DNA of 64,000 nucleotides from a virus. Taxonomy: Duplodnaviria > Caudoviricetes. This document shows positions 6,041 to 47,931 of the stretch, one piece after another; position 1 is the first letter of the stretch, and the number at the start of each line of letters is the position of its first letter. The stretch lies in the IMG/VR virus record IMGVR_UViG_3300020050_009209; one strand, written 5' to 3'. The translations under genes were made by a program, and so were the position numbers. The notes beneath the pieces are model-generated. The model saw only the letters and a list, made by a program, of their open reading frames with translations. It made no database searches and had not been told where the DNA came from.

Positions 6041-6418
6041 TCAATGTCTACTCCGTTGACAGACACCTTGACGTCTACTTCCAGTTCTCGACATGCGCTC
6101 GAATTCGCAGCGCAGCTTTCGCAGCGCGTGCGCCTCGATGCATCGGACGCGCTCCCTGCTCAGCCCGAGCACGTCGGCGATCTCTTGCAGCGTCATCGCG
6201 TACTCGGTCACCTCGTGCGGTTCACGCTCGCTCTCCCCCTCCTCGACGCGTGCCGCGCTCGCGTCGTAGATGCGGGGCCCAAAGGCATCTTCTAGGTCTC
6301 GCATCGTGCCGAGCCGCAACGACTCATCGCGCTCGAACTCGTCGGGGCGATGGGACAGGAGGAGCGCGCGCAGCCGCGGCGTCAGTCTGCGCCACTGCTC
6401 AGCCTGCTTTGGCGTCAC
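6041..6418 (-). CDS. sigma-70 region 4 domain protein (foreign, GC-rich insert)
   Basis: MTLQEIADVLGLSRERVRCIEAHALRKLR is a canonical sigma-70 region 4.2 HTH. Confidence 0.8.
   Translation of the reverse strand: MTPKQAEQWRRLTPRLRALLLSHRPDEFERDESLRLGTMRDLEDAFGPRIYDASAARVEEGESEREPHEVTEYAMTLQEIADVLGLSRERVRCIEAHALRKLRCEFERMSRTGSRRQGVCQRSRH
6048..6082. repeat. 35-bp direct repeat, copy 1
   Basis: CTACTCCGTTGACAGACACCTTGACGTCTACTTCC. Confidence 0.97.
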
Positions 6419-6422
6419 TTCG

Positions 6423-6457
6423 CTACTCCGTTGACAGACACCTTGACGTCTACTTCC
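6423..6457. repeat. 35-bp direct repeat, copy 2
   Basis: Identical to 6048-6082. Confidence 0.97.
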
Positions 6458-6624
6458 GAGTCAGCCTTCACCCCATCCGGGAAGTAGGTTCGAGCGAAGT
6501 CCACCTCCCCATCCTTTCCGGACATAGCTCCTAGAAGGAGCTTGGCAAAATCAGTGTTTCCGGTCAGACTCATTGCAGGATACTTCATGTCCTTACCTAC
6601 GTATCGACCAAGGTACGGTTTAAG

Positions 6625-8686
6625 CTATATTCGATCCACCCAAAGCAACTTCTGCATGGTTACGGAGTACCAACATCCGAGGAAGAACGTTGCAACCACT
6701 GAGATAATGGTACCTACTCCGGAGTAAGCCATTCCGAGGAACATGAGTAGCATGAGAACAACAAGGGTTGTTAGCGTGACTACAGCCTTCAATTGAAGCT
6801 CCTTGCTAACAATTTGTCGAGGTCTAGCGCTCGCTGGCGAATCCAATCTGGAACAGGAGGTCCTTCTAGGGACCTCGCCTTATTGATCCTACAACGGAGC
6901 TTTTCTCTTTCCTCATCCAACTCCGCTTTGATGCGGGCGGTCTGAGCTTTAGACACTCCTCGAAACTCTTCGTCATGGGCTTTACACAAGGTACTGACAA
7001 GCTTATTGCCTTCGTACCACTGAGTGTACGCAACCACTTCACAGTGATCACACGGGGTGTTCGGACCGAGACGCTTCTCTTGCTTTCCTAGCATTTACTT
7101 CCTCTCAGAACGCATTGCAAAACGTTAATAGCACAGATTCAGTGGAGGGTTGGTTGAACATTCGCCGCTCGAAGAGCCTCTAGGATTTTCTCGGCCTGGT
7201 ACTGCATGAACCCAGCTTGAATTGCATCCTTCGGGGGGAGGTCTAGCCCTTGATTAATTAGGCAACTTACCGTTTCCTGGATGTAGGACTCTCGTATACG
7301 TTCTGAGTCTACCGTCCACACCCCATCAGGGCTCGTAAAGCCTACTCTTGTGCGCGATGGTAGTATAGGGTGGACTTTTGGCGCCCCATGAATTCGGCAT
7401 TGCTCCGTAAGCTTAGCGAGGAATTCCTCGAAGGTGTAAGTGCTCACTTAACCAGCCTTGTATTGACTACAACCATAGCCTCCTTGTGCGTTAGACCTTC
7501 GAGATAGCCCGGACTAGCCCCCACAACCAAGAAGTTACCGTACATTGCTCTCCCGCTCGGTATGAATCGATTGAAAGGTAGGTGCTGAATGTCCCTGTTT
7601 GAGAGGACACTGAACATCCCCTCTCGGGTAAGCTCTAAGTTTGAAACCCCAAGTAGAAAATGAGCTTCCTGGAAGAGACGATCGTCACGTCTACCTAAGT
7701 CAACGATTTTAGGCTTGTCCCCAACTCGGTAAAGTACGGCCTTAGACTTGAGACTAGGAGTTGAGTTCAGGTTCGGGTTGTTCTTATGCAAGTCAATGCC
7801 TCAGTCTCGATCGGGTAGCTTACCGGTCACTGCCAACAACACCCAGGTTGCGAACATGGTAGCAAGATACAGGACCGGAGGAATGAAAACGATGTACCAT
7901 CTTGTCATAGAGATGATACCTACGGCAAGGGAAATCACTAGGAAAAAGTTGATAAGGTAGGCGACAAAGAAGGTTGAGATGACCCACTTAACGAGCGCAT
8001 CCGATTCAGCCTTGCTTTGACTCATGGGTAACGGTGACCTGTCCAAGTGCTTGTCGTAAGGTCCCACTCCATCGGAGTGTCGATAATGACCTCTGGGTCC
8101 TTCCGCCAAGTAGAGAGCCGAAAGGTTCCTCTGGGGCCTATAATCTGCCTAGTCTTTTGACTATCCCCTGTCTCTAGGTTGTAGAGACCAGGCCAAATCC
8201 GTTGACCTACGGGGAAAAACACCTCTCCTTTGGGGTTAAGCTGTACGGCTTCCCATTCGAGGAGCTTCTCTAGGGTCACGTCAGCAAACCCTGGTAGTTC
8301 TTGGATGTTGCGGTACCGACATTCGAAGAGCCTTGGGAGGGGCCGTAGCGCGTCAATAACCGCCTGCTTGCACTGAGGGCACCAGGTACTGTCATTCAAG
8401 GGAGCGTTACAACCATGCCCACTTCCCTGATAGCTGTATCGAGTCCCACAATGAGAACAGCGCTTGAGCTGATGAGTCGTCATATACTTCGTTACACTCA
8501 CTTCGACTCAAGCTCCACTGGAGTCGACTGGAAATTAGGTTGAGATGCCGCAAGCACCCAATTCAAGTAGGCATCATACCCGATCGTACCAAAGGACTTC
8601 CACGCAAGAGCTTCACGGGAAGGTTTCTCATTCAGGTTCGGCTTCGGGCAGTCGGGTCGAGTAATCATATCAGTAACTACGAACAT
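6625..8686 (-). other. string of small hypothetical ORFs (6625-6846 membrane, 6789-7094, 7139-7447, 7444-7791, 7801-~8025 membrane, 8022-8501 Zn-finger, 8498-8686)
   Basis: Abutting or overlapping minus-strand ORFs. Confidence 0.65.
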
Positions 8687-9164
8687 TGCACTCAGCTACT
8701 TAACTACTTTATAGGTAGTCTCCTTAGCACATGCAGAATAGAGAGGTGGGTGGGCTCTCTTAGCCACTTTTGCAATCGAAGGGAGAGCTTCACCAAAGGG
8801 GTTGCCCCCCAGCGCACGGGTCTAAAGTAGGGGCCGTAGTAAAATTCGTCTAACATCGGGGGTTACTTACGCTACCTCCCCTTGGTAGTCAAATGCTAGC
8901 ACGCAGAAAGGCCTACCCGTTTTAAGGTAGGCCTTCTCTTACCAGGTGAAGAGACTTGTGGTCTCTCCCGAGGAACCTAACTCTTGATCAGAAAGCTAGG
9001 GTTCCTCTGCAAGCGGACTCCCTCCGCACGATTATATTCATTGAGGTCTCTTTCGTCGCTACAAGGTTAACCTCAGGTAGGACCGAGTCCATACTCTAGA
9101 GGTGTTCTGGTTAAGGTGGCCAACCTCTCCAGTCATGTTACTTACGTTCGTCTCGCCCTACACT

Positions 9165-9536
9165 TTAACCAAGAACTTCGATTTTCTCCCCTGCGGTAAG
9201 AGTCTCGATCGTATCTAGGATCCAACGTAGCTCCCTACTAGGGGAGTTTACTTCGATGTCGGACTCGTCATCAATGTTTGAACCCGACAGTCGAACAGTG
9301 TCAGAGAGGAAGCAAAGGTCGAAAGACCAATTTTCAGTGGACCATTCCGCTTGAACTCCACCCTCTGGCGTTGGGTAGATGTAAACTCTGGCCTCTAGGA
9401 TATCTTCCACACGGGGGAGATACTCTCGTGCTGTCTCTATGGCTGCCCTCGAAGGTGCGAACCCACAGCCATCTAGCCACCCATCTTTGAGGTTAAGTAA
9501 CTCAGTCAACCTCGCGTTGATCGTTTCCAGACTCAC
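9165..9536 (-). CDS. hypothetical protein
   Basis: L..GWLDG...P...IYPTPEGGVQAEW pattern. Confidence 0.7.
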   Translation of the reverse strand: MSLETINARLTELLNLKDGWLDGCGFAPSRAAIETAREYLPRVEDILEARVYIYPTPEGGVQAEWSTENWSFDLCFLSDTVRLSGSNIDDESDIEVNSPSRELRWILDTIETLTAGEKIEVLG

Positions 9537-10762
9537 GACTTACCAAGCTTTGCTAGAGCCAAGGAGTAACCCGCATGTCGTTGACGTTCCAACTCCAACT
9601 GAGACACAACGTCCCAACCTGCGAGGAGAGCTGCCTCAAGTCGGACGATAGCCTCATCCGTGCTTGCGAGAAGCCTGGAGAGCCTCTCCACTGGAGCGCC
9701 GCGTTGAATCAGCCTTGAAGTTACGGTTACCATATAACCCCCTACGGGTTCGAGGTGATCTGGCTTAACTTTTCTTTCAGCTCTTGAGCAGAAATGTCGA
9801 GTTCGATCGAGCTGTTAAAGAGTGCGAGAACTTCGAGCGTCTTAGAGTGGATCAAAGTGGCCTCATCAAAGGCTGCCTTTGTCGTAACCGCTAGGTGCTT
9901 CCACCTCTCGGTCTCGGATCGCCAGTAGCTAACTTGGGCGCTTTTGTACATGTAGGTCAGCCCGATAGTTACAAGCAAACCAGCGAAAATCAAAACTACC
10001 ACTTATGCTTCTCCTCTAGACTCAGGTATGTACCGTGAAGTTCACCGAGTAAAGACACGTCTGCCGGATCCCGACTTGATGATCGACTTGGGCGATGGTG
10101 ACGCGTGTTGCCATCAGCAGCTAAGGCAACAGTAACTACGATCTGCATCGGAACTAACCTCTGGACTCAAGTATACCTCTGCCGGGTCCTCTAGAATCAG
10201 ACTCAGTCTGGACCTACCTCGAATTTGAATAGGCGGGTTAGGTCCTGGACGAGTCCAATCTAGGGTCTGAGTCGCCATTGTAGCTTCGAGGTGGTCAAGG
10301 TCCCACCCAGCAGCTAAGGCCACAACAACGCCGACCCGAATCGCAGACAACTTCAGAGTATCACCTTCGCGGGGGTACCAGCTAACTACTGGACCCCTCG
10401 CATACTCTGGGAAGGCTGCGAGTACAGCGTTAAAAACTTCAGGGGGCAACTTCATTACTGGCGGGCTCAACTTCCTCGATGTCGTTGATATCTGCCATAC
10501 ACCAGTAGCGACCTCGACCTACCCAAACAATTTGAGGGTTTTGTGCGGGGACCGTTTGACCGTGGAGGGGGTAAGCATCACTGCCAGGCATAAGATGATG
10601 CACGCGCACCTTACGTCGCTTGGTGTTGATCACGGGGTCACCGTAACCCCCTCGACCCATGTCCACAATCAAGATGTCAGCCTTAAGGGTCACAACATCC
10701 CCCTTCTTAAGGGGGAGCTTACGCTCGTCATGGTAGCCAAGGTACTTTTTGGTGGTGCTCAT
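9533..10762 (-). other. small hypothetical ORFs (9533-9733, 9742-10002, 10114-10470, 10439-10762)
   Basis: Class I promoters at 9743-9768 and 10772-10797. Confidence 0.65.
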
Positions 10763-10884
10763 AGAGTGTAGTACGAGATGGAGGGCTAGGCCCTTAACCT
10801 AGATCGACGGAGACAGGAAGGGCTTGATTTTTTCAGACAGGTGCTGTAAGCTAACCCTTAGAAACTCTAACTGAAAAGGTATTT

Positions 10885-11646
10885 GTGTACTCAGAAGACG
10901 CGTATATTTCCGTGGGTCGACCTGGAGCTGGATCTTGCGTAGTGCGGGCTAAAACGTGGCCTGGAGACGAGAAGCTAATAGAGAGGTTCTCCCGGAACTA
11001 TCCACCAGGCACTATTATCGCGCACAAAGGTTTGCGATGGGTGATTCGGTCAGGGGGAGCACTGGAGGCGGTGGCAGCGACCCCGGCCCTACCAACGACC
11101 GTGACTCCGAGCTACGTACCTCCAAGCCCCCAAGTAACTGGACCTGGACCTCAAGTGCAGCAGCTACCCGTCCAAGTTGAAGTTGACGAAGAGTTCTTGC
11201 TTGAACGCACGAAGCTCCACAGACCTTACGCTCCAGTAGATGTAAAGCCTCCAGTTTTCAGTGAGTACCCTACGCTAGAGGGTCTGGTGCGTGCAGATAT
11301 TCATTACTTCACGGGTAATGGGGCAAAGCCTCTAACTCTAAGCGAAGCGCTAGCTCGAATCAAAGAGCTTGAAGCTAAAGTTGGACTCCTTGAGTTGCAC
11401 ATAAAGAGACTGACGGGGCACACACAGACACCTGCACCTAATCCGAGTGTTGAGACTCCCCCACCTGTAGTAGACGTTGTAAGCACTCAGCCTGCAACCA
11501 TCAACCCTGGTGAGGTGTGGGTTTCCAAGGACCCTAGAAGGTCGACTCCGTTTACTGTGCAATCCGTGGATGAGGCTAACTTCTACACGACCGCTGGTCG
11601 ATCAATCAACCTTAGCCGCCTCCACTGCTACCGTAGGGTCAGCTAA
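10885..11646 (+). CDS. Pro-rich protein with a C-terminal domain shared with 22335..23099
   Basis: GEVW.SKD.RR...FTV.SV...R.I.LSR...YR. Confidence 0.65.
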   Translation: MYSEDAYISVGRPGAGSCVVRAKTWPGDEKLIERFSRNYPPGTIIAHKGLRWVIRSGGALEAVAATPALPTTVTPSYVPPSPQVTGPGPQVQQLPVQVEVDEEFLLERTKLHRPYAPVDVKPPVFSEYPTLEGLVRADIHYFTGNGAKPLTLSEALARIKELEAKVGLLELHIKRLTGHTQTPAPNPSVETPPPVVDVVSTQPATINPGEVWVSKDPRRSTPFTVQSVDEANFYTTAGRSINLSRLHCYRRVS

Positions 11647-11949
11647 GTCTACCCACTCGTAGTGGTTCTGAGGGATTAGAGTAGCGTCAAGCTTACTAAG
11701 GTAGGACTTGACGCTACTGATTTCTTGAACACTTAGATGGCCATACCACCCAGGGCTTCCGAGGTAGATCCAGTCATCCAGGTTAATCTGCTTTGAACCG
11801 TACGTACCGTAAGGTAGTGGTACGTAGTTGTCGTGCGCTCTCTCCAGGTCCGATGGGTTTTGATCTGGTCGCATCCCATAGGGGATCCCCCAGAGCACGA
11901 GATCCTTACCTCGATAGAGCACTCGAATAGAAGCTAGCTTCTGGTCCAT
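11602..11949 (-). CDS. hypothetical protein
   Basis: Class I promoter at 11958-11982. Confidence 0.7.
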   Translation of the reverse strand: MDQKLASIRVLYRGKDLVLWGIPYGMRPDQNPSDLERAHDNYVPLPYGTYGSKQINLDDWIYLGSPGWYGHLSVQEISSVKSYLSKLDATLIPQNHYEWVDLADPTVAVEAAKVD

Positions 11950-12187
11950 GCCTACCCTACGTAATGCAAACGCCAGCGTTAACTTGTTTTTGTGTACACC
12001 CTAGGCTTGTACACCCAGTACTCGTTCGACACGTAACCTACAATCGCAGTACCTGTAGCTATCTTATCGTAGGCGATTAGCCAGTCTTTGATCTTCCTCT
12101 CAGCTAGCACCATGGACAACTCAGACAAGCTCTCGGCTTGGAGCGTAACATCTCCCTGTAGGCCTCCACGGTAGTCGGCGAACACCA

Positions 12188-12418
12188 TCACCGCTCTTCC
12201 CGTATTTCCGACTTGGCGGCTCTCCTGGCGGCCTTCCGTGGCTTCCGCCTCACCCGAGCACGCTCCGCTGCTGACGTGATGAATACACACCCCCCGCGAT
12301 CCGCGATGCGCTCGGGCTTGGACATGTCCGTGTTTGGTTTTGTACCGTAAGCCTTCATGCGGTTCGGCTTTGAGCGTTTACGCTTTACTGGCTCATGCTT
12401 TTTCTTGGGGTCACTCAC
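12188..12418 (-). CDS. small basic (K/R-rich) protein
   Basis: GAGG SD; coupled to the CYTH gene. Confidence 0.55.
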   Translation of the reverse strand: MSDPKKKHEPVKRKRSKPNRMKAYGTKPNTDMSKPERIADRGGCVFITSAAERARVRRKPRKAARRAAKSEIREER

Positions 12419-12939
12419 GTCCTCACCTCAAGACCCATAGGGTTCATAGGAGAGTCCGCTAGGCTAGAGTTCGTGTACCGAGCATCAAGAGTTACCTCTT
12501 CTCCAAGCCACCCTGGAATCAAGAACGCTTCATTTTCGCTAGTCAGCTCAATTTCAGCCATAACTAGTCCCGCGTTCGCTCCATGGAACTCGTCAATCTC
12601 CCAAATGTGACCCTCTGGTCGGTGGGGTTGGTGGTGGTAGCGGTACCGAGTCTTAGATACGATCGACCGAGTACAACGAGCTAACAACTCCTTTGCATCC
12701 TGTACTGGAATCTCGTACTCGAACTCAGCACGCTTGAGCTTTCCTGCCCCCTTGATCGTAAGGTACCCAGTACCGCCCCACTTACCCCCAACGGTTCGTA
12801 TTCGCAGAAGGTGCTGACTATCTTCTAGGAGATAACCCTGCTCGTAGTGCTTTCCAGCCTCTGCAAATGCTCTCCAGGTGTCGTTCACAACGAGGAACTT
12901 GCGTTCAATCTCAATTCCCACGCCCACCTCCAATGTCAA
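12415..12939 (-). CDS. CYTH-domain (triphosphate tunnel) protein
   Basis: EIERKFLV, QGYL, RIR, EFEY, K.RY, WEIDEF, AEIEL. Confidence 0.92.
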   Translation of the reverse strand: MTLEVGVGIEIERKFLVVNDTWRAFAEAGKHYEQGYLLEDSQHLLRIRTVGGKWGGTGYLTIKGAGKLKRAEFEYEIPVQDAKELLARCTRSIVSKTRYRYHHQPHRPEGHIWEIDEFHGANAGLVMAEIELTSENEAFLIPGWLGEEVTLDARYTNSSLADSPMNPMGLEVRT

Positions 12940-13198
12940 ACGTCAAAGTGTTACCGTCAACCTTCGTGATGAGAGAGGCTCTACCTCCAAACAGGAGGTA
13001 AGACCCAACCAGGGTAGGGTCTGTAACCCCATAGGCTACGGACTGAGCAGCCTCGTAGAGATCGTGGTCTGGAAACCTAAGCCCTAGTTGCACCTCAGCA
13101 ACGAACTTCATTGCCGCAGCAATCAAGAACTGCTCAACCACACCAGCGTTCTCTAGTTCTCTAACTTGTCGCATTTTCCTCTTTGGAGTCAAGCTCAA
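12911..13198 (-). CDS. hypothetical protein
   Basis: ORF in string. Confidence 0.5.
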   Translation of the reverse strand: MSLTPKRKMRQVRELENAGVVEQFLIAAAMKFVAEVQLGLRFPDHDLYEAAQSVAYGVTDPTLVGSYLLFGGRASLITKVDGNTLTFDIGGGRGN

Positions 13199-13703
13199 TG
13201 TCCGCCTTCAACAGCTCAACGAATCTTGGCCACACTCGCTCACAGAAGTGAGTGCACCCAACATGATCGTGAGTGCTGATCTCCTCATACCAACTGGGAC
13301 GGTAGCTTGGCAAGGCTGTCTCACCATTTCTCCAGTCACTAATACCAAGCTCCGTAGAAAAGTCAGCTGCTTCTAGCAACCTCGTCTCTTTTTCGTACTC
13401 TGCCGTACCCTTCGGCCAGATACCCGAGATGAGCGTAGTCATGTTACGCTTCGTCTCCCGCTCGTCAATTCGGTCTGGCACTCCAGTAGGCTTCAGCTTC
13501 CCGTAGAGGTAAGTACTATCGCACTGAGTAAGGAACTCTCGGAACTCACAGCCTGGTTGGCTCCAGACGTAGACGTAGCTGCCATTATCTGACATGGCAG
13601 AGAAGAAGCCAATCGACGTGTCGATAACAATGATAGCCCAACCGCTTCGAGCGTCTCTCGGCAAGAAGAACCGTTTCAGATTGGGTTTTGCTAGGTCAGC
13701 CAT
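13161..13703 (-). CDS. phage protein, paralog of 40662..41180
   Basis: GWA...D...G.FS..SD.G.Y.Y.W......FR.FL. Confidence 0.75.
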   Translation of the reverse strand: MADLAKPNLKRFFLPRDARSGWAIIVIDTSIGFFSAMSDNGSYVYVWSQPGCEFREFLTQCDSTYLYGKLKPTGVPDRIDERETKRNMTTLISGIWPKGTAEYEKETRLLEAADFSTELGISDWRNGETALPSYRPSWYEEISTHDHVGCTHFCERVWPRFVELLKADIELDSKEENATS

Positions 13704-13993: not shown

Positions 13994-14163
13994 GTTTTCG
14001 CCAGTATCCGATCCGGTCCTGTAACGTTCAACGCTGTGAGCTGCTGAAGGGCTGAGCTGTAGCTCAGTTCATTCGACTTCCACTGTCGGAGCACCTCCCG
14101 TACTGCATCGTTAGCCCAGCGCATCAGGGTAGCTCTTCTGAGCTTCACGGTAACCTCGTAAGG

Positions 14164-14197
14164 CTAGGCCCTACTATCTCGGATAGTAGGGCCTAGT
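14164..14197. terminator. strong hairpin downstream of 14204..14398
   Basis: CTAGGCCCTACTATC/GATAGTAGGGCCTAG. Confidence 0.65.
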
Positions 14198-14203
14198 TCT
14201 GTT

Positions 14204-35103: not shown

Positions 35104-36231
35104 TCAGCCATCCTTGGTTCGATACTTACCATTAAGCATTTTGCTAATTACTGATTGGCTTACTTTATAGAGTTGTGCCATCTCTCTCTGTGTTAAACCT
35201 TTGGCTTGAAGGGCCTTCACCTCAGCTACATCCTGAGTGCTAAACTTAGGTTTATTTGGGTTACCACTACCCAACCAAGCTCTGGACTTGGCAAGACGGT
35301 TCTCTGGCTTTACCTCCCTACCAAACATAGGATTACCAGGACCTTTCCTAGCTTCGGAGAGTTGCCTCTTAAAGTCTTGAGACCTCTTGGATCCATAAGC
35401 CGGATGATCTGACCCACGAAGTCCAAACAAAGGGGCGTTCTCGCCTGAGTAAGCACCTTCAGCACTTCGAGTTTTGACTGTCGCGGCTCGCTTGGCTCTC
35501 GCCTCATCGGACAGAGTTATGCCATCCCCTCCAGGGGTTAGGTTGTACCCATACCCTCGCTCGTTAGAGCGGTACCTGGCAACCCATACTTTTTCTTGCT
35601 CATAGGCTTCTTTTTCGTTTTCACATATTTCCAGGGTTTCGTACATGAAGTTACCTTCTCCGTACTTTGCCATGGCGCTATGTACAAGGCTGAATGCTTT
35701 GTGGTCTGGGTGCTTAGACAACCAAACGTGCATACCCCATCGAGACGCGGGGTCTTTTGACTTACCGACGTACCGTTTACCGTTCACTTTGTTAGTGAGG
35801 CAATACACACTTGGCTGCACGTCAACTGGTTTCTCCCTGCCAATGATGGTTACGTTAGCGGAGCAAACCCCTAATCTAGCGTGAACTAGATCTATTGCCA
35901 CTTGTGGGTCGAAGTCCCCACAGGAGAAAACATCGAAGCTAAAGAACTTTTGGAGAGGCCAAGCATGAATGCTGATGTGGCTTTTACTAATGATGCAGGT
36001 TCCAGTAATGCCGCCCTCATCACGGAATACCCCTGTTGCCCTTGACTGACGCAACACCTCAGGGTCCATGGGAACCTCCACAAAGTTAGGACCCACTAGA
36101 ATATCCATGTCGAGAGCGGACACAAGATCAACAAACAGGTTGGCTAGTGTCTCCTTTGTGAATACAAGAGGGTCATTAACAAATGCGTCAATGAGGACGT
36201 GAACTCCCGCGCTCTCGATAACTCGACTCAT
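35104..36231 (-). CDS. SpeD-like pyruvoyl decarboxylase fused to a GIY-YIG/NUMOD3 homing endonuclease
   Basis: GGITG..IISKSHISIHAWP...DVFSCG, then VYCLTN..NGKRYVG...RW..H, GYNLTPGG and NPMFG repeats. Confidence 0.85.
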   Translation of the reverse strand: MSRVIESAGVHVLIDAFVNDPLVFTKETLANLFVDLVSALDMDILVGPNFVEVPMDPEVLRQSRATGVFRDEGGITGTCIISKSHISIHAWPLQKFFSFDVFSCGDFDPQVAIDLVHARLGVCSANVTIIGREKPVDVQPSVYCLTNKVNGKRYVGKSKDPASRWGMHVWLSKHPDHKAFSLVHSAMAKYGEGNFMYETLEICENEKEAYEQEKVWVARYRSNERGYGYNLTPGGDGITLSDEARAKRAATVKTRSAEGAYSGENAPLFGLRGSDHPAYGSKRSQDFKRQLSEARKGPGNPMFGREVKPENRLAKSRAWLGSGNPNKPKFSTQDVAEVKALQAKGLTQREMAQLYKVSQSVISKMLNGKYRTKDG

Positions 36232-38932: not shown

Positions 38933-40638
38933 TACAAGACCGGTAGTGGAGTCTCCACGTCTTCAGGGGTACTTACAGCTGCGAGTACTGATCGGAAACT
39001 CTCCACCTGATCTCGACTCATGTCCACTTCAAGTACATAGTGGGCAAACACCTCAGCGAACGCCTCATCAATGTTACTAGCTCCGTAGGTGGAGACGGGT
39101 GCCACTGGAGCGGGGTTGTTCTCGTAGCTCTCAAGCCAAGCTTTTGTAGCAGGGTCGTTCTTTGCTTTTTGATGTGCTTGCTCGTTGTGAGCTACGACAG
39201 CTGAGTCTAGGTAAATGAGAGCTTCGGCCACCAGAGTATGTACCAAGACTAACGCCTCTGCTGTCCATGTGGCCTTCGTTTCGTCCGTAACCCCGTAGAA
39301 GTCATCTACGTGCTCGTGGAACTTTGCGCGAGTACGATAAGCCTCATCTTTCGCCTTATCTACCTCTGGGGTCGTATCGAACTCTGGGGTGGCTATTGCG
39401 TCAATAATCTCGTTACTGAATTGCCGACTCAGGTCTGTGAGTTTACTCTCATCCCCTAGTCCGCTGTACTTAGTTACAGCTTTTTCTAGGTTACTCCCCC
39501 ATGTGTCGATAGCCTTACGGTACGGTTGGATCATACTCTCACGTACCAGCTTAACCTCAACGGTTTTCGCAGGTCTTGATACCGTGTGAGTCTTCACTAG
39601 GGACTCGAACTTTGCTCGCTGAGAAGATCGCATTTGCTTAAACCAATATCGGTGCCCAAGCTCGTGTACGACAAGCTCAACGATAAAGGAGGATGGTCTA
39701 CTGAAGATTGAGACAGTGTCCTTCCCGATAACGTAGTGACCTCCAACCCCTCCCCCATTATTAGAGTTCACTCCTCCACAATCACTGCACTGGATGAACA
39801 CGGTACCGTACCAAGCCTTTGCGAACCCCTTAGCCTTCAACTTGTTGAAGGCTTCGTCCAAGTAGCGCACATACTTTTTGAGGTCATCTGGAAGAAGTGT
39901 ATTGTCATCTACGACAACTTTCATTCCGTACAGGTCAAACTCCCTGAACCCAGCAGGGGAATCCTCGATGGCCTTCTGAGAGTAGTTCGCCTCCAACATC
40001 ACGAGTATACGATCGACCCAGTCGGTAAAGTCCAACTCCAGTTTGGTTCGACTTAGAGCCTTCAAGGCTGACGCTTCAAAGTTGATGGACTCTAGGAACG
40101 CGTACTTACGATGGTACTGACCCTCATCCGTAAGGGCCTCCATTTGGCTATGGGTCGCAGCCTTCAAGGTCCTAGCTACAAGCCGATCGACCATCTTCTC
40201 GTCGATATACCAAGAGTACCTGAACAAGTACCCTAGAGTCTTGGCTGACGCTTTTATCTTGCTGAAGATAGCATTTATCGCGTACCACCTAAGGTAGTCC
40301 ACAGGGTCATTGAAGTTGACATAACTATGGCCCTTAGGTAGCTTCTGAGCTACCGCTTCAATGTAGCGTTTGATGGAATCCACTCGGTCTTTGATGGACT
40401 CCAACGCCTGAGCAGCTATGGACCCAGAGCCAACCTGCTTCCGAAAGTCATCTAGGAAGTCGTCAAAGAAGAAGATGAGCTTCTCGTCGATGATGTTCGG
40501 CCAGTCACTGATGTCATCCGACAGAGACTTTTGGAGGCGTTGCTTAAGGTCTTTGCTACGCTCCTTGAACCAGGATTGAGGTAGCATAGCCGCTACCTTG
40601 ACATAGTACCTAGTGGCAACTCGAAGGGTAATACTCAT
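38917..40638 (-). CDS. zincin-like metallopeptidase
   Basis: VVHELGH and distal STYG..NIDEAFAE. Confidence 0.75.
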   Translation of the reverse strand: MSITLRVATRYYVKVAAMLPQSWFKERSKDLKQRLQKSLSDDISDWPNIIDEKLIFFFDDFLDDFRKQVGSGSIAAQALESIKDRVDSIKRYIEAVAQKLPKGHSYVNFNDPVDYLRWYAINAIFSKIKASAKTLGYLFRYSWYIDEKMVDRLVARTLKAATHSQMEALTDEGQYHRKYAFLESINFEASALKALSRTKLELDFTDWVDRILVMLEANYSQKAIEDSPAGFREFDLYGMKVVVDDNTLLPDDLKKYVRYLDEAFNKLKAKGFAKAWYGTVFIQCSDCGGVNSNNGGGVGGHYVIGKDTVSIFSRPSSFIVELVVHELGHRYWFKQMRSSQRAKFESLVKTHTVSRPAKTVEVKLVRESMIQPYRKAIDTWGSNLEKAVTKYSGLGDESKLTDLSRQFSNEIIDAIATPEFDTTPEVDKAKDEAYRTRAKFHEHVDDFYGVTDETKATWTAEALVLVHTLVAEALIYLDSAVVAHNEQAHQKAKNDPATKAWLESYENNPAPVAPVSTYGASNIDEAFAEVFAHYVLEVDMSRDQVESFRSVLAAVSTPEDVETPLPVLYWKAT

Positions 40639-40661
40639 ACTGGTGGCACTCAACAAGAAGG

Positions 40662-41180
40662 TTAACCTCTCAACGGTAACCCCTCGGCTGCCAACTCTTC
40701 TTGGAGTAGTAACCTAAGCCTAGGTAGAACCTTCTCGACAAAGGACCAAGATTGCCCTTCGCGTTTGGACACGGGGATGTCAACCCAGTCCTGGTAGTCC
40801 AAGTCTAGATCCTCAGTCCAGCTGGTGAGACTATGCCAGTCCTCTACCGTGGAGCTTAGATCCCGAGCCTCCTCTATAAGCCTTGTAGTTATCTTCCCTG
40901 CCGCCAGCATAGCATCAAGCTTTAACTGTATGGCCTTTTGGGTAGCATCTACGTCCCAAACCCAAGCCTCTCGACCTTGAGTAATTTTTCCCCAGAAGGA
41001 GTCAGGAGCCGTACTACACAGGAACTGCCTAAAGTCCAATGGACCGATGTTGGTCCACATGTACGAATAGTTCCCCCAGTCGCTTACGGTGGAGAAGTAC
41101 CCGTCCTTCAGGTCCAATACAACGACAGCCCAACCCTCGCCATTGATCGAGGGGATGTTGTAACGACGAAAAGAGGTCAT
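40662..41180 (-). CDS. phage protein, paralog of 13161..13703
   Basis: Shared N-terminal motif. Confidence 0.75.
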   Translation of the reverse strand: MTSFRRYNIPSINGEGWAVVVLDLKDGYFSTVSDWGNYSYMWTNIGPLDFRQFLCSTAPDSFWGKITQGREAWVWDVDATQKAIQLKLDAMLAAGKITTRLIEEARDLSSTVEDWHSLTSWTEDLDLDYQDWVDIPVSKREGQSWSFVEKVLPRLRLLLQEELAAEGLPLRG

Positions 41181-41198
41181 CCTATGTAGGACACCAAG

Positions 41199-41402
41199 TC
41201 AGTGTGGGACTGCCAAGAATCTGCTCACGTATTGACAGCTATCGAAACAACCCCGTACAAAGAAGTGGGACTCGTGAACCTTAACTACATGAACTGCATT
41301 GCAAATCTTGAAGTGTCTAGAGCACTGGGGACAGAACCCTGTACGAGGGTGATCCTTAGGCTCCACTAGAGTTAAGGTATGCAAACACTGAGGACAATTC
41401 AC
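41199..41402 (-). CDS. small Zn-ribbon protein
   Basis: Two CPQC motifs. Confidence 0.5.
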   Translation of the reverse strand: MNCPQCLHTLTLVEPKDHPRTGFCPQCSRHFKICNAVHVVKVHESHFFVRGCFDSCQYVSRFLAVPH

Positions 41403-41413
41403 ACAAAACCTCG

Positions 41414-42508
41414 TTAACGTAGGAACATGGGAGGTGGTTTGGGGGCCTCACCCACCTGAGGTAGTTCCTGCTTTTCCCAACTATCAATCAGACCGTCGAG
41501 TAGTTTGATGTCCTTCTTCAAATCCGAGATAAGACCCGTGGTAGTTTGAATTCGATCCTTGACTCGGTCATCCCACTCTCGCTGACCTAGGTCCTCAAGC
41601 GTTAGCTTTCTCCCCTGCGTTGTGTACAACACAAGTACCCTGCCAGCTTGGAGGTCACGTAGAGAAGACTCGGAGTCCCGCACGGAGTCATGTAAGACTT
41701 TCACAAGGTGCTGCGTGCCTTTAGGGCTCAGCTCAAACGGCTGGTAGCCGACACCAAGACACCTACCCTGCACTTGCCCCCAACCTGGACGCTCATACCC
41801 GTGAAGGACTACGATGTAGTCCTCACCTTGACGTTTGAGCTTGATGTTCCTGAAGCAGCAAGGACACGTCCCAGTGTTCTCACGAGTGCGAGGCTTTGAC
41901 TCCTCACGCTCCCGCTCATACGTGCTCACTCCAAGTGCATTGGACACCTGAGTTAGGAAACTCGTACTCTCTCGCAACCACTTGCGAATCTCGTAGTATG
42001 GTATCTTCTTAGGATCCGAATACTGAACGTAGTAACTCCTACTTGGTAGTAGCTCAAAGACAGCGCCTTCAGGTGATGTAAATCGAAGCCCGTTTGCACC
42101 TACCCACTCAAGGAAGGAGTAGCCGGTTAGGTCGAAGTTAAAGCCCTCGGAGGTAGGAGCAGTTACATCCATCGTGTAATGCTTCATCGCTTGCGGGCTG
42201 GACGGTAGAGACCTTACCTCTAAGTCCTTAGTTAGCTCCCATCTTGCTTGAACCGTTAACGGATTAGAGTCGGTTTCCAGATTTGGAGCATTAGGATCTT
42301 GCGGGTACCCGTGTAGTTGAACCAAGCCGACGAAAGGCTCTACAGTCCAGCCTCCAAGGTACTGAAGAACTTCAAGTAGTTGCTTCATCGTAATGCTGGA
42401 GTCAGCTCCCTTACGGAGCTTGACAAGAAGCGCCTTTACCTTCTCCTCGCTAAGAGCGGCAGCGTAGCGGGAGACTACTCGACTTACAGTGACTTTTGAC
42501 TCTACCAT
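41414..42508 (-). CDS. hypothetical protein
   Basis: GTCPCCFR...HGY.RPG.G...G.C.G; N-terminal RVVSRY motif. Confidence 0.7.
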   Translation of the reverse strand: MVESKVTVSRVVSRYAAALSEEKVKALLVKLRKGADSSITMKQLLEVLQYLGGWTVEPFVGLVQLHGYPQDPNAPNLETDSNPLTVQARWELTKDLEVRSLPSSPQAMKHYTMDVTAPTSEGFNFDLTGYSFLEWVGANGLRFTSPEGAVFELLPSRSYYVQYSDPKKIPYYEIRKWLRESTSFLTQVSNALGVSTYEREREESKPRTRENTGTCPCCFRNIKLKRQGEDYIVVLHGYERPGWGQVQGRCLGVGYQPFELSPKGTQHLVKVLHDSVRDSESSLRDLQAGRVLVLYTTQGRKLTLEDLGQREWDDRVKDRIQTTTGLISDLKKDIKLLDGLIDSWEKQELPQVGEAPKPPPMFLR

Positions 42509-43107
42509 GTGAAGTCCCCTTCCGCCTTCTTCATGCGGAGACGGTGAAGGATCATAGGCCCTAGGAATAGAGACGCAAAAGTACCACCTGCCCACCGTTT
42601 ACGGTCGTAGTCCGATAGGTTACGTGAGGCTCTCTCCCTACGCATCTTGATGTTGAAAGCGGCTGCATCTACGGTAGCCTGCTTGAACTCCCCAAAAACA
42701 GGAGCGTGAGCTAGCACCCACGTTGAGTAATCCACGAAACCTTCATCATAAAATGGCTCAACGGACGGAAACTGGCTCAGTGAGCCATGAACCATCTCGT
42801 GAGTCAACTTCTCCAAGGTCTGTCCTGGATTACCCTCTACAGAGGAGCACAGACTAATCTGCCCACTCACCATGTCGAAGCTCGCAGTAGCTCCACTCAT
42901 GTGCATCCCGTCTGGGAGCTTAAGTATTCTAGATTGAGGTTCCGTCCCGAAGGGACCTAGAGCCTCAACCAGAAAACTGTAAATGCGCGGAGCCCAGTCG
43001 ACCACAAACTGGTCCCAGTCCGAGTTGAACACTTGGCATTGAAATGCCTTGCTCGACGTCTTCATGGAGGCCGACTTGAGGTACCTCTGAGCTTCAGGAG
43101 GGAGCAT
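42502..43107 (-). CDS. HEXXH metallopeptidase-like protein
   Basis: THEMVH...DEGF. Confidence 0.7.
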   Translation of the reverse strand: MLPPEAQRYLKSASMKTSSKAFQCQVFNSDWDQFVVDWAPRIYSFLVEALGPFGTEPQSRILKLPDGMHMSGATASFDMVSGQISLCSSVEGNPGQTLEKLTHEMVHGSLSQFPSVEPFYDEGFVDYSTWVLAHAPVFGEFKQATVDAAAFNIKMRRERASRNLSDYDRKRWAGGTFASLFLGPMILHRLRMKKAEGDFTW

Positions 43108-43110
43108 CCC

Positions 43111-43935
43111 TTAGACTTCAGCTCTCTCGTTCTTGACGTCGAAGTGCTTGCGTAGGACCGACTTGATTTGGTCCTTGTACTTCAGCCAAGCTGGGTGCGA
43201 CATCGGGTTGTTCTTGAGGAACGGGATCATCTGATCCCTTACAATCTCGGCGTCCGTATACCCCTGTAGGAGCAAGTCAAAGTAAAGGTCCAGGTCTGGA
43301 GTGACTCTGGGGTTTACCTTCCTAGCCAACTCCTCTCGGATGTTGTCCAAGTCACTCTCTAGAAGGTACTTGTCGAGGTGGTCCCAAGCCCCTGGGTCCT
43401 CAATGACCCTCTCAACGCCTTCCAGGTCCGTCATGGAATCCGTGATGCTCTTGTCCTCATCACCTCTGGTGTCATGCCTAAACTGGTCGATAGCTAGCAT
43501 GTTGAGGGACGTGAGGATGTAGCTCTCCGCTCTCTTTAGAGATTGACCCGACAGGTTCCGTAGAGAGTCAGGCTTAGCTAGGAACTTGAGCATTAGCTCC
43601 GTCATCAAGTCTTCTGCTCGGTTCGGATCGCGATGCTTCATGAGTAGCATCTTGTAAGCCTTCGAGCCAAAGTTGGCGCCGTAACCACTAGGGATCTTAC
43701 GGTCCATCTCTCGTGCGTTCTGAGGCTTGAAGTTCTCAGCAGGTTGATCCTTGATGGGTGGAAGTCCCTCCACCCCGTTCATCAAGAATAACCCGTAGAT
43801 AACTCTCCCGAACCCAGCAGCGGGCCCAGCTGCTAGCTTCACTAGAAGGTTAGCCAGCCTATATCCCCATGGAAGGCTGGCATATACCTTACGACCTAAC
43901 TCACTAGCGACTCTTACTAAGGCGTGTGTATCCAT
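43111..43935 (-). CDS. ECF-like phage sigma factor
   Basis: AEDLMTELMLKF and YILTSLNMLAIDQFR (region 2); LLLQGYTDAEI (region 4-like). Confidence 0.6.
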   Translation of the reverse strand: MDTHALVRVASELGRKVYASLPWGYRLANLLVKLAAGPAAGFGRVIYGLFLMNGVEGLPPIKDQPAENFKPQNAREMDRKIPSGYGANFGSKAYKMLLMKHRDPNRAEDLMTELMLKFLAKPDSLRNLSGQSLKRAESYILTSLNMLAIDQFRHDTRGDEDKSITDSMTDLEGVERVIEDPGAWDHLDKYLLESDLDNIREELARKVNPRVTPDLDLYFDLLLQGYTDAEIVRDQMIPFLKNNPMSHPAWLKYKDQIKSVLRKHFDVKNERAEV

Positions 43936-43961
43936 TACGGATAGTCTACGATAAAAGGATT

Positions 43962-45125
43962 CTACATCCCCCGAGAGACCATCCGCTGAGTGCCCTTTAC
44001 GGACAACCCAATGGTGGTTGCAATCTCGTTGAGATTGCAACCTTCGCTGAGAAGCTTGAGGATCTCAACCTCACGCTCCTGATTCCCCTCCGCAGACCAG
44101 CCCAGAGCCTTGCGGCTAGACTTACCAGAGGCAATCAGCTTCACAGTTTGAGTGAGGTCCACAATGACCTCTTGCTGACACCCATGAGGGTCGACGATAG
44201 CACTCTCCCATGAGACCTCTTCGCTACCCTCTCTTGGGGTGACAACAATCTCCTTGTGCCTACGAGACTTGGTTCGCAACCAGTTCACATAGATATTGAA
44301 GACAGCTCGGTACAAGTACTGCTTGAAGGTACCACGAGTCCTAGGAAGGTGAGGAGACCCAGAGGTATCGTAATCAACGACCTTCCGACCTTTGATTCGG
44401 AACTCCTCCCGAATCGCCTCGTACTTCTCAATGTCTGACTTAGAATAAGTAGCCTCAGAGGACATGCAATCCCCACTAATAGGAGATGGCGCCCACTGAC
44501 CCTTTAACCTAGGGCAACAAAAGAGGCACAAGGTGTGCACTTCCGAGAGGGTAGGTTCAAGACTACTCACTTCCGCATTACCCGTACGGTACAAGTAGAA
44601 GTTTTGGAAACGAGAAACCACCCAAAAGACTTGACGGGTCTTAGGGATCCCGAACTCCCGCTGAAGGTTCTCTCGTTCCTCCTCTTGAAGGTCCTTGGAC
44701 ATCAACCTAAGCTTGCTAGCATAGGAATTCATGTCGGTACCACAAGAAGAGCATACCCCGTGGTCCCTACTCTCCACTTCCTCTAGAAGAGCCTTAGAGG
44801 GACGCTCTACCTTCAATCCCTTAGGGAAGACTCCCAAGACGTATCGGTATACCGCCATCTTGAAAGCACTTTCTTGCATCTTCAGGTAAGCAGCAGCTGA
44901 GGAAGCTGTCACAACCTCAGGCAACCTTACCGAGTAGGAGTTGTCATACTTCCTTAGGAAGTCGGCTTCAAACAACTTGAGCCAGACATGCTGGATGATA
45001 TCCGCCGAGTTATCAGCTACCTTGTTAGCCTTTCGGATCGCACTACTCACAAAGGTGGAGTAATGCTTTACGAAGTCGTTGTTGTTCTTAGGTACGTAGT
45101 CTTCATCAGTCTTTTTAACAAGCAT
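43962..45125 (-). CDS. ECF-like sigma factor with a ~200-aa HTH/HNH-like insertion in region 2
   Basis: ADIIQHVWLKL..KYD / RGTFKQYLYRAVFN..VNWLR; region 4 EREVEILKLLSEGCNLNEIATTIGLS; start set by class I promoter at 45135-45160. Confidence 0.7.
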   Translation of the reverse strand: MLVKKTDEDYVPKNNNDFVKHYSTFVSSAIRKANKVADNSADIIQHVWLKLFEADFLRKYDNSYSVRLPEVVTASSAAAYLKMQESAFKMAVYRYVLGVFPKGLKVERPSKALLEEVESRDHGVCSSCGTDMNSYASKLRLMSKDLQEEERENLQREFGIPKTRQVFWVVSRFQNFYLYRTGNAEVSSLEPTLSEVHTLCLFCCPRLKGQWAPSPISGDCMSSEATYSKSDIEKYEAIREEFRIKGRKVVDYDTSGSPHLPRTRGTFKQYLYRAVFNIYVNWLRTKSRRHKEIVVTPREGSEEVSWESAIVDPHGCQQEVIVDLTQTVKLIASGKSSRKALGWSAEGNQEREVEILKLLSEGCNLNEIATTIGLSVKGTQRMVSRGM

Positions 45126-45756
45126 CGTCTTCCTTACGGAAGTTGGAGGTGAACACTTAACCGAAAACTTGATCCCACACACACACATGACTACTAAGTA
45201 GGATTGAGGTACTGAGGAGGGCTGCTCTATCTAGGGGGGTAGGGTTAGGATGACTGGTTAGGTTGAAAGGGATGTTCGTATCAGGATGATTGGTTTTTGA
45301 GTTAGTTTCGCTACGCTATACCAAAAAGAATAAGATCTGATCGGTATAGGAGGGGTTAAGGATGGTGGTCCTAGGTAGTAACCCCTATCTGAGTCTACTG
45401 AGTCCTTGAGGGACTCTTTGGTCGGAGTGAGTTATGAAGTACCTACCTCAATGCTCACTTACTTACGGGATCTGCCTAACTTTCCACAACTTCATGTTAG
45501 ACTGGAGCGACTCATCTTTCAGAGCCTCCTCTCCAAGGAGAGGACCTTAAGAGACCTTCTAGAGGAAAGAAGCTGACCCCTCTAGACTAACCCACACAGG
45601 CTTTTCAAGTACTGATCAGGAAGTGCTGTCACTACTTGTCCTACTTTCTAGTAGGTATGGAACCCTATAACCCATCCCTCGGTCACTGAGGTTGACCCCT
45701 CTCGTATAGACCTGAGAAACCCCTAGCGCAAGTCATTTTGTTCTGGTACCATCTCA

Positions 45757-46098
45757 TTGAGGTATTTCATGTACTTAGCTAGTGTTGTCGAGCTATCCGA
45801 TGTGAAAGATAGCCCAAAACTACGGGTCAACTTACCTAGCCCTCTACTTATCGGCTCCAAGGTGACTTTGAGCTGTAAAGTGCAGCGTAAGAGGGGACCT
45901 AGGACAGAGGAGCTTTCGATCCAAGGTGAGTTCAGGGTGGTCTCTTGTGTCTTCGATGTCGCCAAACAGCGTCAGTTAGTTTCTATCGAGACTACCCAGG
46001 TAGCTCCAGTGTGGAGGTCCATTCGAAATCCTCCTCAGAGGGGGTTAGCTCCTACTCACTCCCACTTCCTAGTTGATGGTAAGTTATGTCCGACCTGA
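45757..46098 (+). CDS. hypothetical protein
   Basis: ORF divergent from the sigma genes. Confidence 0.55.
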   Translation: MRYFMYLASVVELSDVKDSPKLRVNLPSPLLIGSKVTLSCKVQRKRGPRTEELSIQGEFRVVSCVFDVAKQRQLVSIETTQVAPVWRSIRNPPQRGLAPTHSHFLVDGKLCPT

Positions 46099-46266
46099 GT
46101 ATAGGTAAGCTCACTGATGCGCTACCTCTTGCGATCTGGTTACCTCGTAGTAGCTACGATGTTTACCGGGGGAGCCCATCGGAGATCATCCAAGAGCTTA
46201 CTGGGAACAAGTCTACTTCCATGCGGCAAGCCATCAAGAAGGTCACGAAAAGTCTTGAGGTGACTC

Positions 46267-46280
46267 GTCGAGTGAAGCTG
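46267..46280. repeat. 14-bp direct repeat, copy 1
   Basis: GTCGAGTGAAGCTG at the left GC-shift boundary. Confidence 0.9.
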
Positions 46281-46384
46281 CCCGCGCCCGACCGGCTGCG
46301 GCAGCTCAACGCGGTCGCCATCGTGCAGGTGCGCTCGCTGCTCACCTCGCCCACCGTGAAGCGCCTCGCGCCAGGGAAGAAGAC

Positions 46385-47926
46385 ATGACGAAACGACTCA
46401 AGCGACTGGAGCTGACGTGGATCGGCAAGGAGGACCGGCCCCGCCTGGAGCCACGCATCCTCCTTGAGGACGAGCAGCTGTCCTACGCGAAGCGCGTGTC
46501 AGACGAGGACATCTTCGACAACCGGCTGATCCACGGGGACAATTTGCTGGCGCTGAAGGCGCTGGAGCAGGAGTTTGCGGGGAAGGTGAAGTGCGTCTTC
46601 ATCGACCCTCCGTACAACACGGGTAATGCATTTGAGCAGTACGATGATGGCCTTGAGCACTCTCTCTGGCTATCGCTCATGAGAGATCGACTTTCGCTGC
46701 TGTGGGCGCTTCTGGCAGATGATGGTTCGATCTGGATTACCATCGACGACACCGAGGCTCACTACTTGAAGGTCCTCTGCGATGAACTGTTCGGTCGGGG
46801 GTCGTATGTAGGGAGCATTGTCTGGGAGAAAGACAAGGGAAGGCGGAGCGATACCGCGCTTTCGATCTCTCATGACTATATCCTGCTTTACGCCAAGAAC
46901 TCGAAGATTTGGGGTTCCCGACGGAATCTTCTTGTTCGCGAAGCCCACCAGGAAGGGCGCTACAAGAATCCTGACAACGACCCCCGTGGTCCGTGGTTGC
47001 AAGGAGACAATGGCACTGCAAAGAGTGCAAGTGAAGGAAGTCGTTGGCCAATCACTCTCCCGTCGGGGAGAGTGGTTCGCCCTCCAAATGGTCGCGGGTG
47101 GGCCTTCTCTATCGACACCTTCGAAACCGCGCGGTCCGAGGGACGTGTCTACTGCGGGCGTGATGGAGATGGTATGCCTATCATCAAACGATACTTGTCC
47201 GAGGTGCAGGATGGTGTCGTTCCCCGCAGTTGGTGGCCCGCCGACGATGCAGGGCACAACCAAGAGGCCAAGCGCGATCACCTCAACAAGCTGCTGCAGG
47301 GCGTGACTCCGTTCGCTACGCCAAAGCCGGAGCGTCTTCTTCAGCGAATCCTCACGATTGCGACCAACCCCGGCGAACTCGTCCTAGACTCTTTTGCTGG
47401 GTCGGGGACGACCGGCGCCGTCGCACAAAAGATGGGACGCCGCTGGATCATGATTGAACTCGGTGAGCACTGCTACTCACATCTCTTGCCGCGCATTCGA
47501 AAAGTGGTCGATGGCAAGGACCCCTACGGCATTACGACAGATGTCGAATGGTCGGGAGGCGGAGGCTTCCGCTTCTACAGGCTCGCCCCCTCGCTGCTTG
47601 AGAAGGACAAGTGGGGCAACTGGATCGTCAGCAAGCAGTACCAACCCGAGATGCTCGCCGAGGCGATGTGCAAGCTGGAGGGCTTCCGGTACGCGCCGGA
47701 TCGGGAGGCCTTCTGGAACCATGGTCACTCGACCGAGCGCGACTTCATCTACGTGACCACCCAGAACCTGAGCCCCGACCAGCTCCGCTTCATCAGCGAC
47801 CAGGTTGGCCCCGAGCGCTCGCTGCTCATCTGCTGTGGCGCTTTCCGGGGCAAGCCCGACTTCGCGAACCTGACGGTGAAGAAGATCCCGCAGGCGGTGC
47901 TCGCGCGCTGTGAGTGGGTCGAGTGA
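46385..47926 (+). CDS. mod: Type III R-M Mod subunit (N6-adenine DNA methyltransferase), probably C-terminally clipped
   Basis: LIHGDNL, IDPPYN, TPKPE.LL, VLDSFAGSGTT; GC-rich codon usage. Confidence 0.9.
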   Translation: MTKRLKRLELTWIGKEDRPRLEPRILLEDEQLSYAKRVSDEDIFDNRLIHGDNLLALKALEQEFAGKVKCVFIDPPYNTGNAFEQYDDGLEHSLWLSLMRDRLSLLWALLADDGSIWITIDDTEAHYLKVLCDELFGRGSYVGSIVWEKDKGRRSDTALSISHDYILLYAKNSKIWGSRRNLLVREAHQEGRYKNPDNDPRGPWLQGDNGTAKSASEGSRWPITLPSGRVVRPPNGRGWAFSIDTFETARSEGRVYCGRDGDGMPIIKRYLSEVQDGVVPRSWWPADDAGHNQEAKRDHLNKLLQGVTPFATPKPERLLQRILTIATNPGELVLDSFAGSGTTGAVAQKMGRRWIMIELGEHCYSHLLPRIRKVVDGKDPYGITTDVEWSGGGGFRFYRLAPSLLEKDKWGNWIVSKQYQPEMLAEAMCKLEGFRYAPDREAFWNHGHSTERDFIYVTTQNLSPDQLRFISDQVGPERSLLICCGAFRGKPDFANLTVKKIPQAVLARCEWVE

Positions 47927-47931
47927 AGCTG
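47918..47931. repeat. 14-bp direct repeat, copy 2
   Basis: GTCGAGTGAAGCTG at the right boundary; supplies the Mod stop codon. Confidence 0.9.

Follow-up and report, generated by a model that had tools for sequence, protein, structure and literature searches.

The stretch of DNA analysed here, 64,000 nucleotides of the IMG/VR virus record IMGVR_UViG_3300020050_009209 (hereafter the window), is part of a phage genome of ~382 kb, the longest contig carrying the window's proteins measuring 381,772 bp. The window has a GC content of 51.7%, carries 23 tRNA genes, and shows only two strong GC peaks across its whole 64 kb, which are the two foreign segments described here as insert 1 (at site 1) and insert 2 (at site 2). 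Each of them interrupts a phage gene between two copies of a short phage sequence, and at both sites excising the insert together with one repeat copy restores the target open reading frame (ORF). We conclude that foreign linear DNA entered this phage in two separate and very recent insertions, both independent of homology and both into small dispensable genes; neither insert is a mobile element. The features at site 1 are as follows.

5866-6047, minus strand: interrupted phage gene, stranded 3' half (intact 127-amino-acid (aa) form in sister contig L011).
6041-6418, minus strand: captured ORF, 125 aa by translation (Sigma70_r4, E=1.2e-10).
6048-6082: site 1 target-site duplication, left copy, 35 bp (exact repeat; one copy in L011).
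6083-6422, minus strand: insert 1, foreign, 340 bp, 66.8% GC (homology with codons 1-111 in a Sigma70_r4-like gene of 121 aa).
6423-6457: site 1 target-site duplication, right copy, 35 bp (exact repeat; one copy in L011).
6415-6588, minus strand: interrupted phage gene, truncated 5' half, 57 aa (identical product on 6 contigs).

The 35-mer CTACTCCGTTGACAGACACCTTGACGTCTACTTCC is found at 6048-6082 and at 6423-6457, with all 35 of 35 positions identical. The phage ORF that starts at 6588 on the minus strand passes through the first repeat copy it meets and stops two codons on, and its continuation picks up again beyond the second copy. The captured 125-aa ORF begins with a GTG that shares bases with the TGA stop of the truncated gene (GTGA), and its last 14 codons and stop are supplied by the phage repeat. 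The empty site is present in L011, which holds a single 35-mer and an intact 127-aa gene; of its two flanks, one matches the window at 100% over 681 nt and the other at 99% over 209 nt.

Site 2 has the same layout on the opposite strand, with these features.

46086-46388, plus strand: chimeric ORF, 65 aa from the phage target gene, then an in-frame donor tail of 35 aa (tail match in L019).
46267-46280: site 2 target-site duplication, left copy, 14 bp (one copy in L008 (10182-10195), L009 and L010).
46281-47917, plus strand: insert 2, foreign, 1637 bp, 60.2% GC (from GC content and donor comparison).
46385-47926, plus strand: captured N6/N4 (Mod-type) DNA methyltransferase, 513 aa (PF01555, E=1.5e-45).
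47918-47931: site 2 target-site duplication, right copy, 14 bp (gives the methylase's last two codons and stop).
47932-48027, plus strand: interrupted 96-aa phage gene, stranded 3' end (from the intact sister gene).

The 14-mer GTCGAGTGAAGCTG occurs in the window at 46267-46280 and 47918-47931 only, where shuffled sequences lead one to expect none. Here the target ORF runs for its first 65 codons and then into foreign DNA, its last 31 codons lying beyond the second 14-mer. Insert 2 opens with 104 nt from the end of the gene that lies upstream in the donor, followed by a Mod-type methylase gene truncated after codon 511, and the stop of the chimeric ORF overlaps the methylase start in an ATGA. 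Used as a query, this chimeric ORF recovered a 96-aa protein (P0209) made up of exactly the N-terminal 65 and C-terminal 31 residues that the window holds as two halves, and the intact gene for it is present on many contigs in NCBI, JGI, ENA and Logan. Three of these (L008, L009 and L010) carry the empty site, with a single 14-mer and intact P0209, and are 92-100% identical to the window across 10-20 kb.

Both the 35-mer and the 14-mer repeats are true target-site duplications, since the sisters with empty sites hold a single copy and an intact gene. That the repeat copies are identical, and the flanks of the empty alleles 99-100% identical to the window, indicates that the insertions are recent. 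The filled junctions are also present, at 99.7-100% identity, in contigs from at least three other samples: L001 (sample 3300020046) matches the window at 99.98% along 21.5 kb that take in insert 2, L003 (sample 3300005664) does so at 100% along 10.8 kb that take in insert 1, and L004 (sample 3300020047) spans one insert 1 junction before the contig breaks within insert 1. A reading of this DNA made from its letters and ORFs (the sequence-only reading) had allowed that both segments might be misassemblies, and the recurrence of the filled junctions in other assemblies argues against any one-off error of that kind. An assembly chimera, in which GC-rich community reads were threaded into a phage contig, would account for the clustering of assembly differences in the inserts and for the break of L004 in insert 1, both of which suggest donor-related sequences in the same samples; it would not have produced a 35- or 14-bp duplication of phage DNA flanking the insert or left in-frame, coupled ORFs, and it would have had to produce identical junctions in those other samples, so that we consider it extremely unlikely.

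The differences between assemblies do concentrate within the inserts, with all three of those in L004 (6342, 6366 and 6369) and two of the four in L001 (47599 and 47602) falling there. At 6342, 6366 and 6369 it is the window that carries the donor-like base. These differences may possibly come from donor-related reads in the same samples or from exchange with donor alleles after capture.

An exhaustive profile-free search gave P0124, a protein of 121 aa, as the best relative of the insert 1 protein, with 95% identity over residues 1-111. The small-protein family of P0124 has 84 matching representatives, mostly of 120-160 aa and aligned from their first few residues, and the insert 1 protein belongs with these small Sigma70 region-4-like proteins in that it aligns from residue 1 and has a C-terminal region-4.2 helix-turn-helix (HTH). 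At the nucleotide level insert 1 is 91.7% identical to the P0124 gene contigs L005 and L006 (71-73% GC) over window positions 6423-6086, with no similarity beyond. Neighbours of the P0124 gene are of temperate-phage type (an ImmA-like peptidase, an HTH_3 repressor, a PDDEXK nuclease, AAA_24 and a helicase), and from this gene content the donor resembles a temperate-phage-like element. In the donor, the bounds of insert 1 fall 4 nt ahead of the start codon and 10 codons short of the stop. The possibility that insert 1 is a sigma-factor fragment was rejected, the alignment with P0124 showing a near-complete small gene. The captured region-4 protein is possibly a late-gene regulator of the donor phage.

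For insert 2, the closest genomic relatives of the methylase are in a Sorangium metagenome-assembled genome (MAG; 79% aa identity) and a Polyangiaceae MAG (80% nt identity, 3' half). In the Polyangiaceae MAG the gene upstream of Mod has an end that matches the 35-residue tail fused to the phage ORF, which makes the ATGA coupling of this tail with Mod a native feature of the donor. The phage copy retains the FIDPPYN (DPPY) and DSFAGSGTT (FxGxG) motifs and ends at a CEW motif, past which its relatives, of 537-595 aa, continue for 25-81 residues. In a cellular relative (L002) the gene stands in a SNF2 helicase - Mod - ResIII operon; the phage has the Mod copy without Res. An orphan Mod-type methylase is able to modify DNA without Res, and for this reason the predicted benefit of the captured methylase is likely to be protection of the phage's own DNA from restriction of the donor type (Type III-like). 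A perfect 14-nt inverted repeat (46677-46690 / 46862-46875) encloses 171 bp of the methylase gene's lower-GC middle part, where the Polyangiaceae relative stops aligning, and the region so enclosed is possibly the target-recognition domain.

The junctions themselves were compared with these donor relatives. At the start-codon end of insert 1 a single G is shared with the donor relative, and at its other end CTTC is possibly shared, set apart by 3 unmatched nt; the 5' junction of insert 2 shares GCTG (4 nt) and the 3' junction a G (1 nt). Judged on donor relatives, then, the junctions are compatible with end joining, having 0-4 nt of microhomology and possible filler. Neither the 35-mer nor the 14-mer is present at the breakpoints of the donor relatives (L005/L006 and L019/L012), where similarity ends at the junctions. 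The absence of a repeat core next to the donor segment, in relatives 74-92% identical to the inserts, speaks against site-specific att x att integration, and the sequence-only reading's concern that the repeats might be att-like sites of the donor finds no support in these relatives.

Features of mobile DNA were likewise missing. The ends of either insert do not pair as terminal inverted repeats, and inside the inserts we found no mobility genes, the Sigma70_r4-like protein and the methylase being all that is encoded. No integrase or reverse transcriptase lies in or beside the inserts, and as for marks of retro-capture there is no A-run, both inserts ending within ORFs. The difference in duplication length (35 vs 14 bp) further disfavours one dedicated integrase. 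These results uphold the sequence-only reading where it described two GC-shifted foreign segments flanked by 35- and 14-bp duplications of target sequence (exact repeats, and empty sites in the sisters), carrying no mobility genes, and oriented and coupled for expression through the GTGA and ATGA overlaps. Its statement that the donor ends are arbitrary stands insofar as both inserts end within donor genes, and has to be softened for insert 1, which is nearly a whole small gene.

How might such a structure arise? A flanking duplication needs either the fill-in of overhangs before ligation or a polymerase that returns behind its point of departure. Our tentative preference, to which we would give somewhat less than an even chance, is for a staggered break that was filled in, end-joined to foreign DNA and kept by selection. 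Nicked on its two strands at points 35 or 14 nt from each other, the phage DNA would suffer a staggered double-strand break with 5' overhangs; the length of the duplications means that these nicks would be widely staggered. The overhangs would be filled in and a foreign fragment, from host DNA or a co-resident temperate phage, would then be ligated between the ends by end joining of the Ku/LigD type. Selection would afterwards favour orientation with, and translational coupling to, the interrupted gene through GTGA and ATGA. A mechanism common to both captures is at most suggested by the two events.

Three lines of evidence favour end joining. Two junctions are almost without homology and one possibly has filler, and the 0-4 nt found at the donor ends agree with the sequence-only reading's proposal of repair by end joining. 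It is known that bacterial non-homologous end joining (NHEJ) fills in overhangs and captures pieces of DNA at breaks, fragments having been integrated with fill-in synthesis at breaks induced by I-SceI in Streptomyces (PMC5869714). Finally, the phage clade has Ku beside site 2. In close and in more distant sisters a bona fide Ku gene of bacterial type follows directly on the site 2 gene (L008:10493-11269 and L094:5543-6391; TIGR02772 213 bits against a cut-off of 150, PF02735 E=8e-35), and the Sorangium genome with the closest genomic Mod has Ku three times, so end joining may have been available. Ku-bearing phages and hosts also show more recent gene flow (PMC8136500). In the window the sisters' Ku gene is replaced as follows.

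48222-48316: 95 unrelated nt in place of the sisters' Ku gene (from sister comparison).

Because close and distant sisters alike have Ku where the window has these 95 nt, Ku looks ancestral in the clade and lost from this lineage's locus. The replacement scar lies ~290 bp from insert 2. A second scar lies ~650 bp from insert 1, at 7095-7140, and marks the deletion of a 259-aa N6_N4 DNA methylase that L011 has kept (567-1346); of the gene, ~30 nt at its start and ~20 nt at its end survive on either side of a 25-nt filler. No template for the filler at the scars near the inserts was found in the DNA examined. Insertions and deletions (indels) separate these phages at a rate of one per ~2 kb. The other indels relative to the sister phages are deletions or replacements without duplications, and the duplication footprint is thus specific to the two GC-rich inserts. 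One of these other differences, at 53400-53440, concerns the gene for a DenV-like pyrimidine-dimer glycosylase (Pyr_excise), which here lacks ~300 bp between imperfect 11-nt repeats and is intact in L008 (15768-16169).

Several points weigh against filled-in breaks joined by NHEJ. Ku is absent at the clade's locus and throughout the 64-kb window of the genome that bears the inserts. We identified no agent that makes nicks 14 or 35 nt apart. The microhomology was read from donor relatives that are only 74-92% identical, which leaves the exact junctions uncertain, template switching would yield an identical footprint, and there are two events only. The sequence-only reading had pointed to six HNH nucleases and one GIY-YIG nuclease encoded nearby, or to host CRISPR or restriction-modification cutting, as the source of the breaks. 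Three of the ten ORFs scanned pass the Pfam cut-off for HNH (55949-56668 on the minus strand, 57410-58105 and 59906-60622), one is weak (58579-59301) and one is GIY-YIG, a count that bears out part of the inventory; all of the scanned HNH and GIY-YIG ORFs are kilobases from the inserts, and no link to cutting by these enzymes, by CRISPR or by restriction was found. Its proposal of staggered breaks and end joining fares better, given the short microhomology and the Ku of the sisters, and is held back by the small number of events and by the template-switching alternative.

One further feature is shared by the two sites, a hexamer directly abutting each duplication on an outward reading of the flank.

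6458-6463, plus strand: GAGTCA abutting the site 1 duplication.
46261-46266, minus strand: GAGTCA abutting the site 2 duplication.

When sites were placed at random 200,000 times on the window without its inserts, they shared an adjacent 6-mer with a frequency of ~0.001 and an adjacent 5-mer with a frequency of ~0.004, figures that are post hoc and concern two sites. The adjacency gives a hint that sequence may direct one of the two nicks. A stronger form, in which a sequence-specific event at GAGTCA sets one edge of the duplication and provides a site-biased, recurrent route of capture in huge phages, is in our estimation a long shot. A nickase could be at work, or the event could be the 5' end that an Okazaki fragment has when priming occurs at a GTC site of the T7 type, where a 4-nt primer would end exactly on the duplication edge; a displaced flap of 14-35 nt, or a staggered break, would then take up foreign DNA. 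Were this true, the direct repeats would also permit clean loss of the captured gene. We know of no nuclease that cuts at the edge between GAGTCA and the duplication. Cutting at GAGTC in the manner of HinfI (G^ANTC) or Nt.BstNBI was rejected since these enzymes cut at positions that disagree with the duplication edges; nicks made at pyrimidine dimers by an enzyme like DenV fit just one edge; and off-target integration by CRISPR/Cas1 was rejected since the inserts are 10-50 times the length of a spacer.

The same footprint would result from replicative template switching, akin to microhomology-mediated break-induced replication (MMBIR) or fork stalling and template switching (FoSTeS), a serious rival that we rate as less likely. 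A nascent 3' end would leave the phage template, prime on foreign single-stranded DNA via 1-4 nt of microhomology, copy 340 or 1637 nt, and return 35 or 14 nt behind its point of departure, thereby creating the duplication. Large phages replicate by recombination-dependent replication and have many invading 3' ends, variable back-steps come naturally to such a process, and short microhomology is possible at all four junctions. At two of these, however, it amounts to 0-1 nt, which is short for priming, and one junction has three apparently untemplated nt. The scars near the inserts, at ~650 bp for insert 1 and ~290 bp for insert 2, are what one complex local event might leave, yet their filler has no template in the DNA examined and, with indels at about every 2 kb, they may be unrelated.

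Textbooks explain phage mosaicism by illegitimate recombination with subsequent selection (a model cited in PMC8136500), and two independent illegitimate crossovers could have linked a foreign fragment with two different phage genome copies, in a concatemer or on sister molecules, so that the overlaps of 35 and 14 bp would be accidental offsets. Such crossovers require no homology, and an infected cell holds many phage copies. Their offsets should nevertheless be broad and should give deletions as often as duplications, whereas both events here left small duplications, and both of these abut the same hexamer, which suggests one local lesion per event; we judge this course improbable. Still less probable is enzymatic integration in trans, whether by a casposase/Cas1-type integrase (14-15-bp duplications), by a transposase or by target-primed reverse transcription. 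Casposons make duplications of 14 bp, the length seen at site 2. Variable-length duplications and cargo truncated at its 5' and 3' ends also resemble retro-capture (PMC9578705, PMC9578709). Against this, the duplications differ in length, both inserts end within ORFs, terminal inverted repeats and a poly(A) or other 3' signature are missing, and no integrase or reverse transcriptase is encoded in or beside the inserts. Of these courses, fill-in of a staggered break and end joining is the one we carry forward.

Both inserts are oriented as the gene they interrupt, and their starts overlap the upstream stop, in GTGA for insert 1 and ATGA for insert 2. The same orientation of both would occur by chance with a probability of 1/4, and for this reason selection for expression of the captured genes is no more than plausible.

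The genomic setting of these sites was surveyed more widely. No third GC-shifted, repeat-bounded insert was found in the window and ~45 kb of scanned sister DNA. Searches for close relatives yielded nothing useful among isolated phages (INPHARED, DNA and protein) or in IMG/VR (pattern and protein searches), and the JGI metagenome contig collection gave no useful phage relatives, so that the phage relatives described above were obtained via exact-protein look-ups only; such a look-up with the window's own methylase gave no match. The HNH ORFs between 55949 and 60622 are interspersed with tRNA genes, and the sister phages differ there by gene-sized replacements. At 35104-36231 (minus strand) a single ORF combines an S-adenosylmethionine decarboxylase domain (residues 11-132) with a homing-endonuclease module of GIY-YIG, NUMOD3 and HTH (residues 141-371). 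A 455-aa protein encoded at 49142-50509 (minus strand) matches phrog_6077, and many phages of Vibrio, Pseudomonas and enterobacteria have proteins ~31% identical to it; one of these proteins is annotated as an RIIA lysis inhibitor.

Gene uptake by virulent and huge phages has mostly been inferred from old, eroded events, and here two fresh footprints are readable. The filled allele, the empty allele and near-donor sequences together give a rare before-and-after view of foreign gene capture. The footprint also supplies a testable model: a staggered break or a back-stepping polymerase, dependent on Ku or not, linked to GAGTCA or not. The immediate pay-off is that a methylase of a restriction system was taken with its native translational coupling by the same lineage that lost a resident methylase and, at the clade's locus, Ku.

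Among known systems, these captures resemble the trapping of DNA at breaks by bacterial NHEJ (PMC5869714) and the part in phage gene flow proposed for Ku (PMC8136500), with which they share homology-free insertion, probable fill-in, microhomology of a few nt or less, the absence of mobile-element genes and a clade that has Ku. Unlike the NHEJ capture experiments, the event here is a natural one in a phage genome, the cargo consists of foreign genes, the duplications are long (14 and 35 bp), and Ku is missing at the clade's locus. Phage 'morons' and the mycobacteriophage Giles provide a second parallel, with gene acquisition by illegitimate recombination (Morris et al. 2008, as cited in PMC8136500). 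The likeness lies in a foreign gene with arbitrary ends and without flanking homology or recombinase. To our knowledge those cases were inferred without empty-site alleles or target-site duplications, whereas here pre-insertion alleles and near-donor sequences are in hand. The LINE-1-mediated capture of genes by poxviruses (PMC9578705, PMC9578709) is similar in that a large double-stranded DNA virus takes up cellular genes with variable-length duplications and no mobility genes; it differs from the present captures, which have no poly(A) and no evidence of an RNA intermediate or a reverse transcriptase, end inside ORFs and took place in a prokaryotic setting. Transposons, insertion sequences and casposons likewise leave a direct target duplication on both sides of the insert. 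They are set apart from our two inserts by the lack here of terminal inverted repeats and of a transposase or casposase, by two different and unusually long duplications, and by cargo whose ends are arbitrary within donor genes. Lastly, the captured methylase resembles the orphan anti-restriction methyltransferases of phages in being a Mod-type N6/N4 enzyme without Res in an expressed orientation. What sets it apart is a recent origin that is still visible in the foreign GC content, the shortened 3' end, the remnant of the gene upstream of it in the donor and the intact sister allele.

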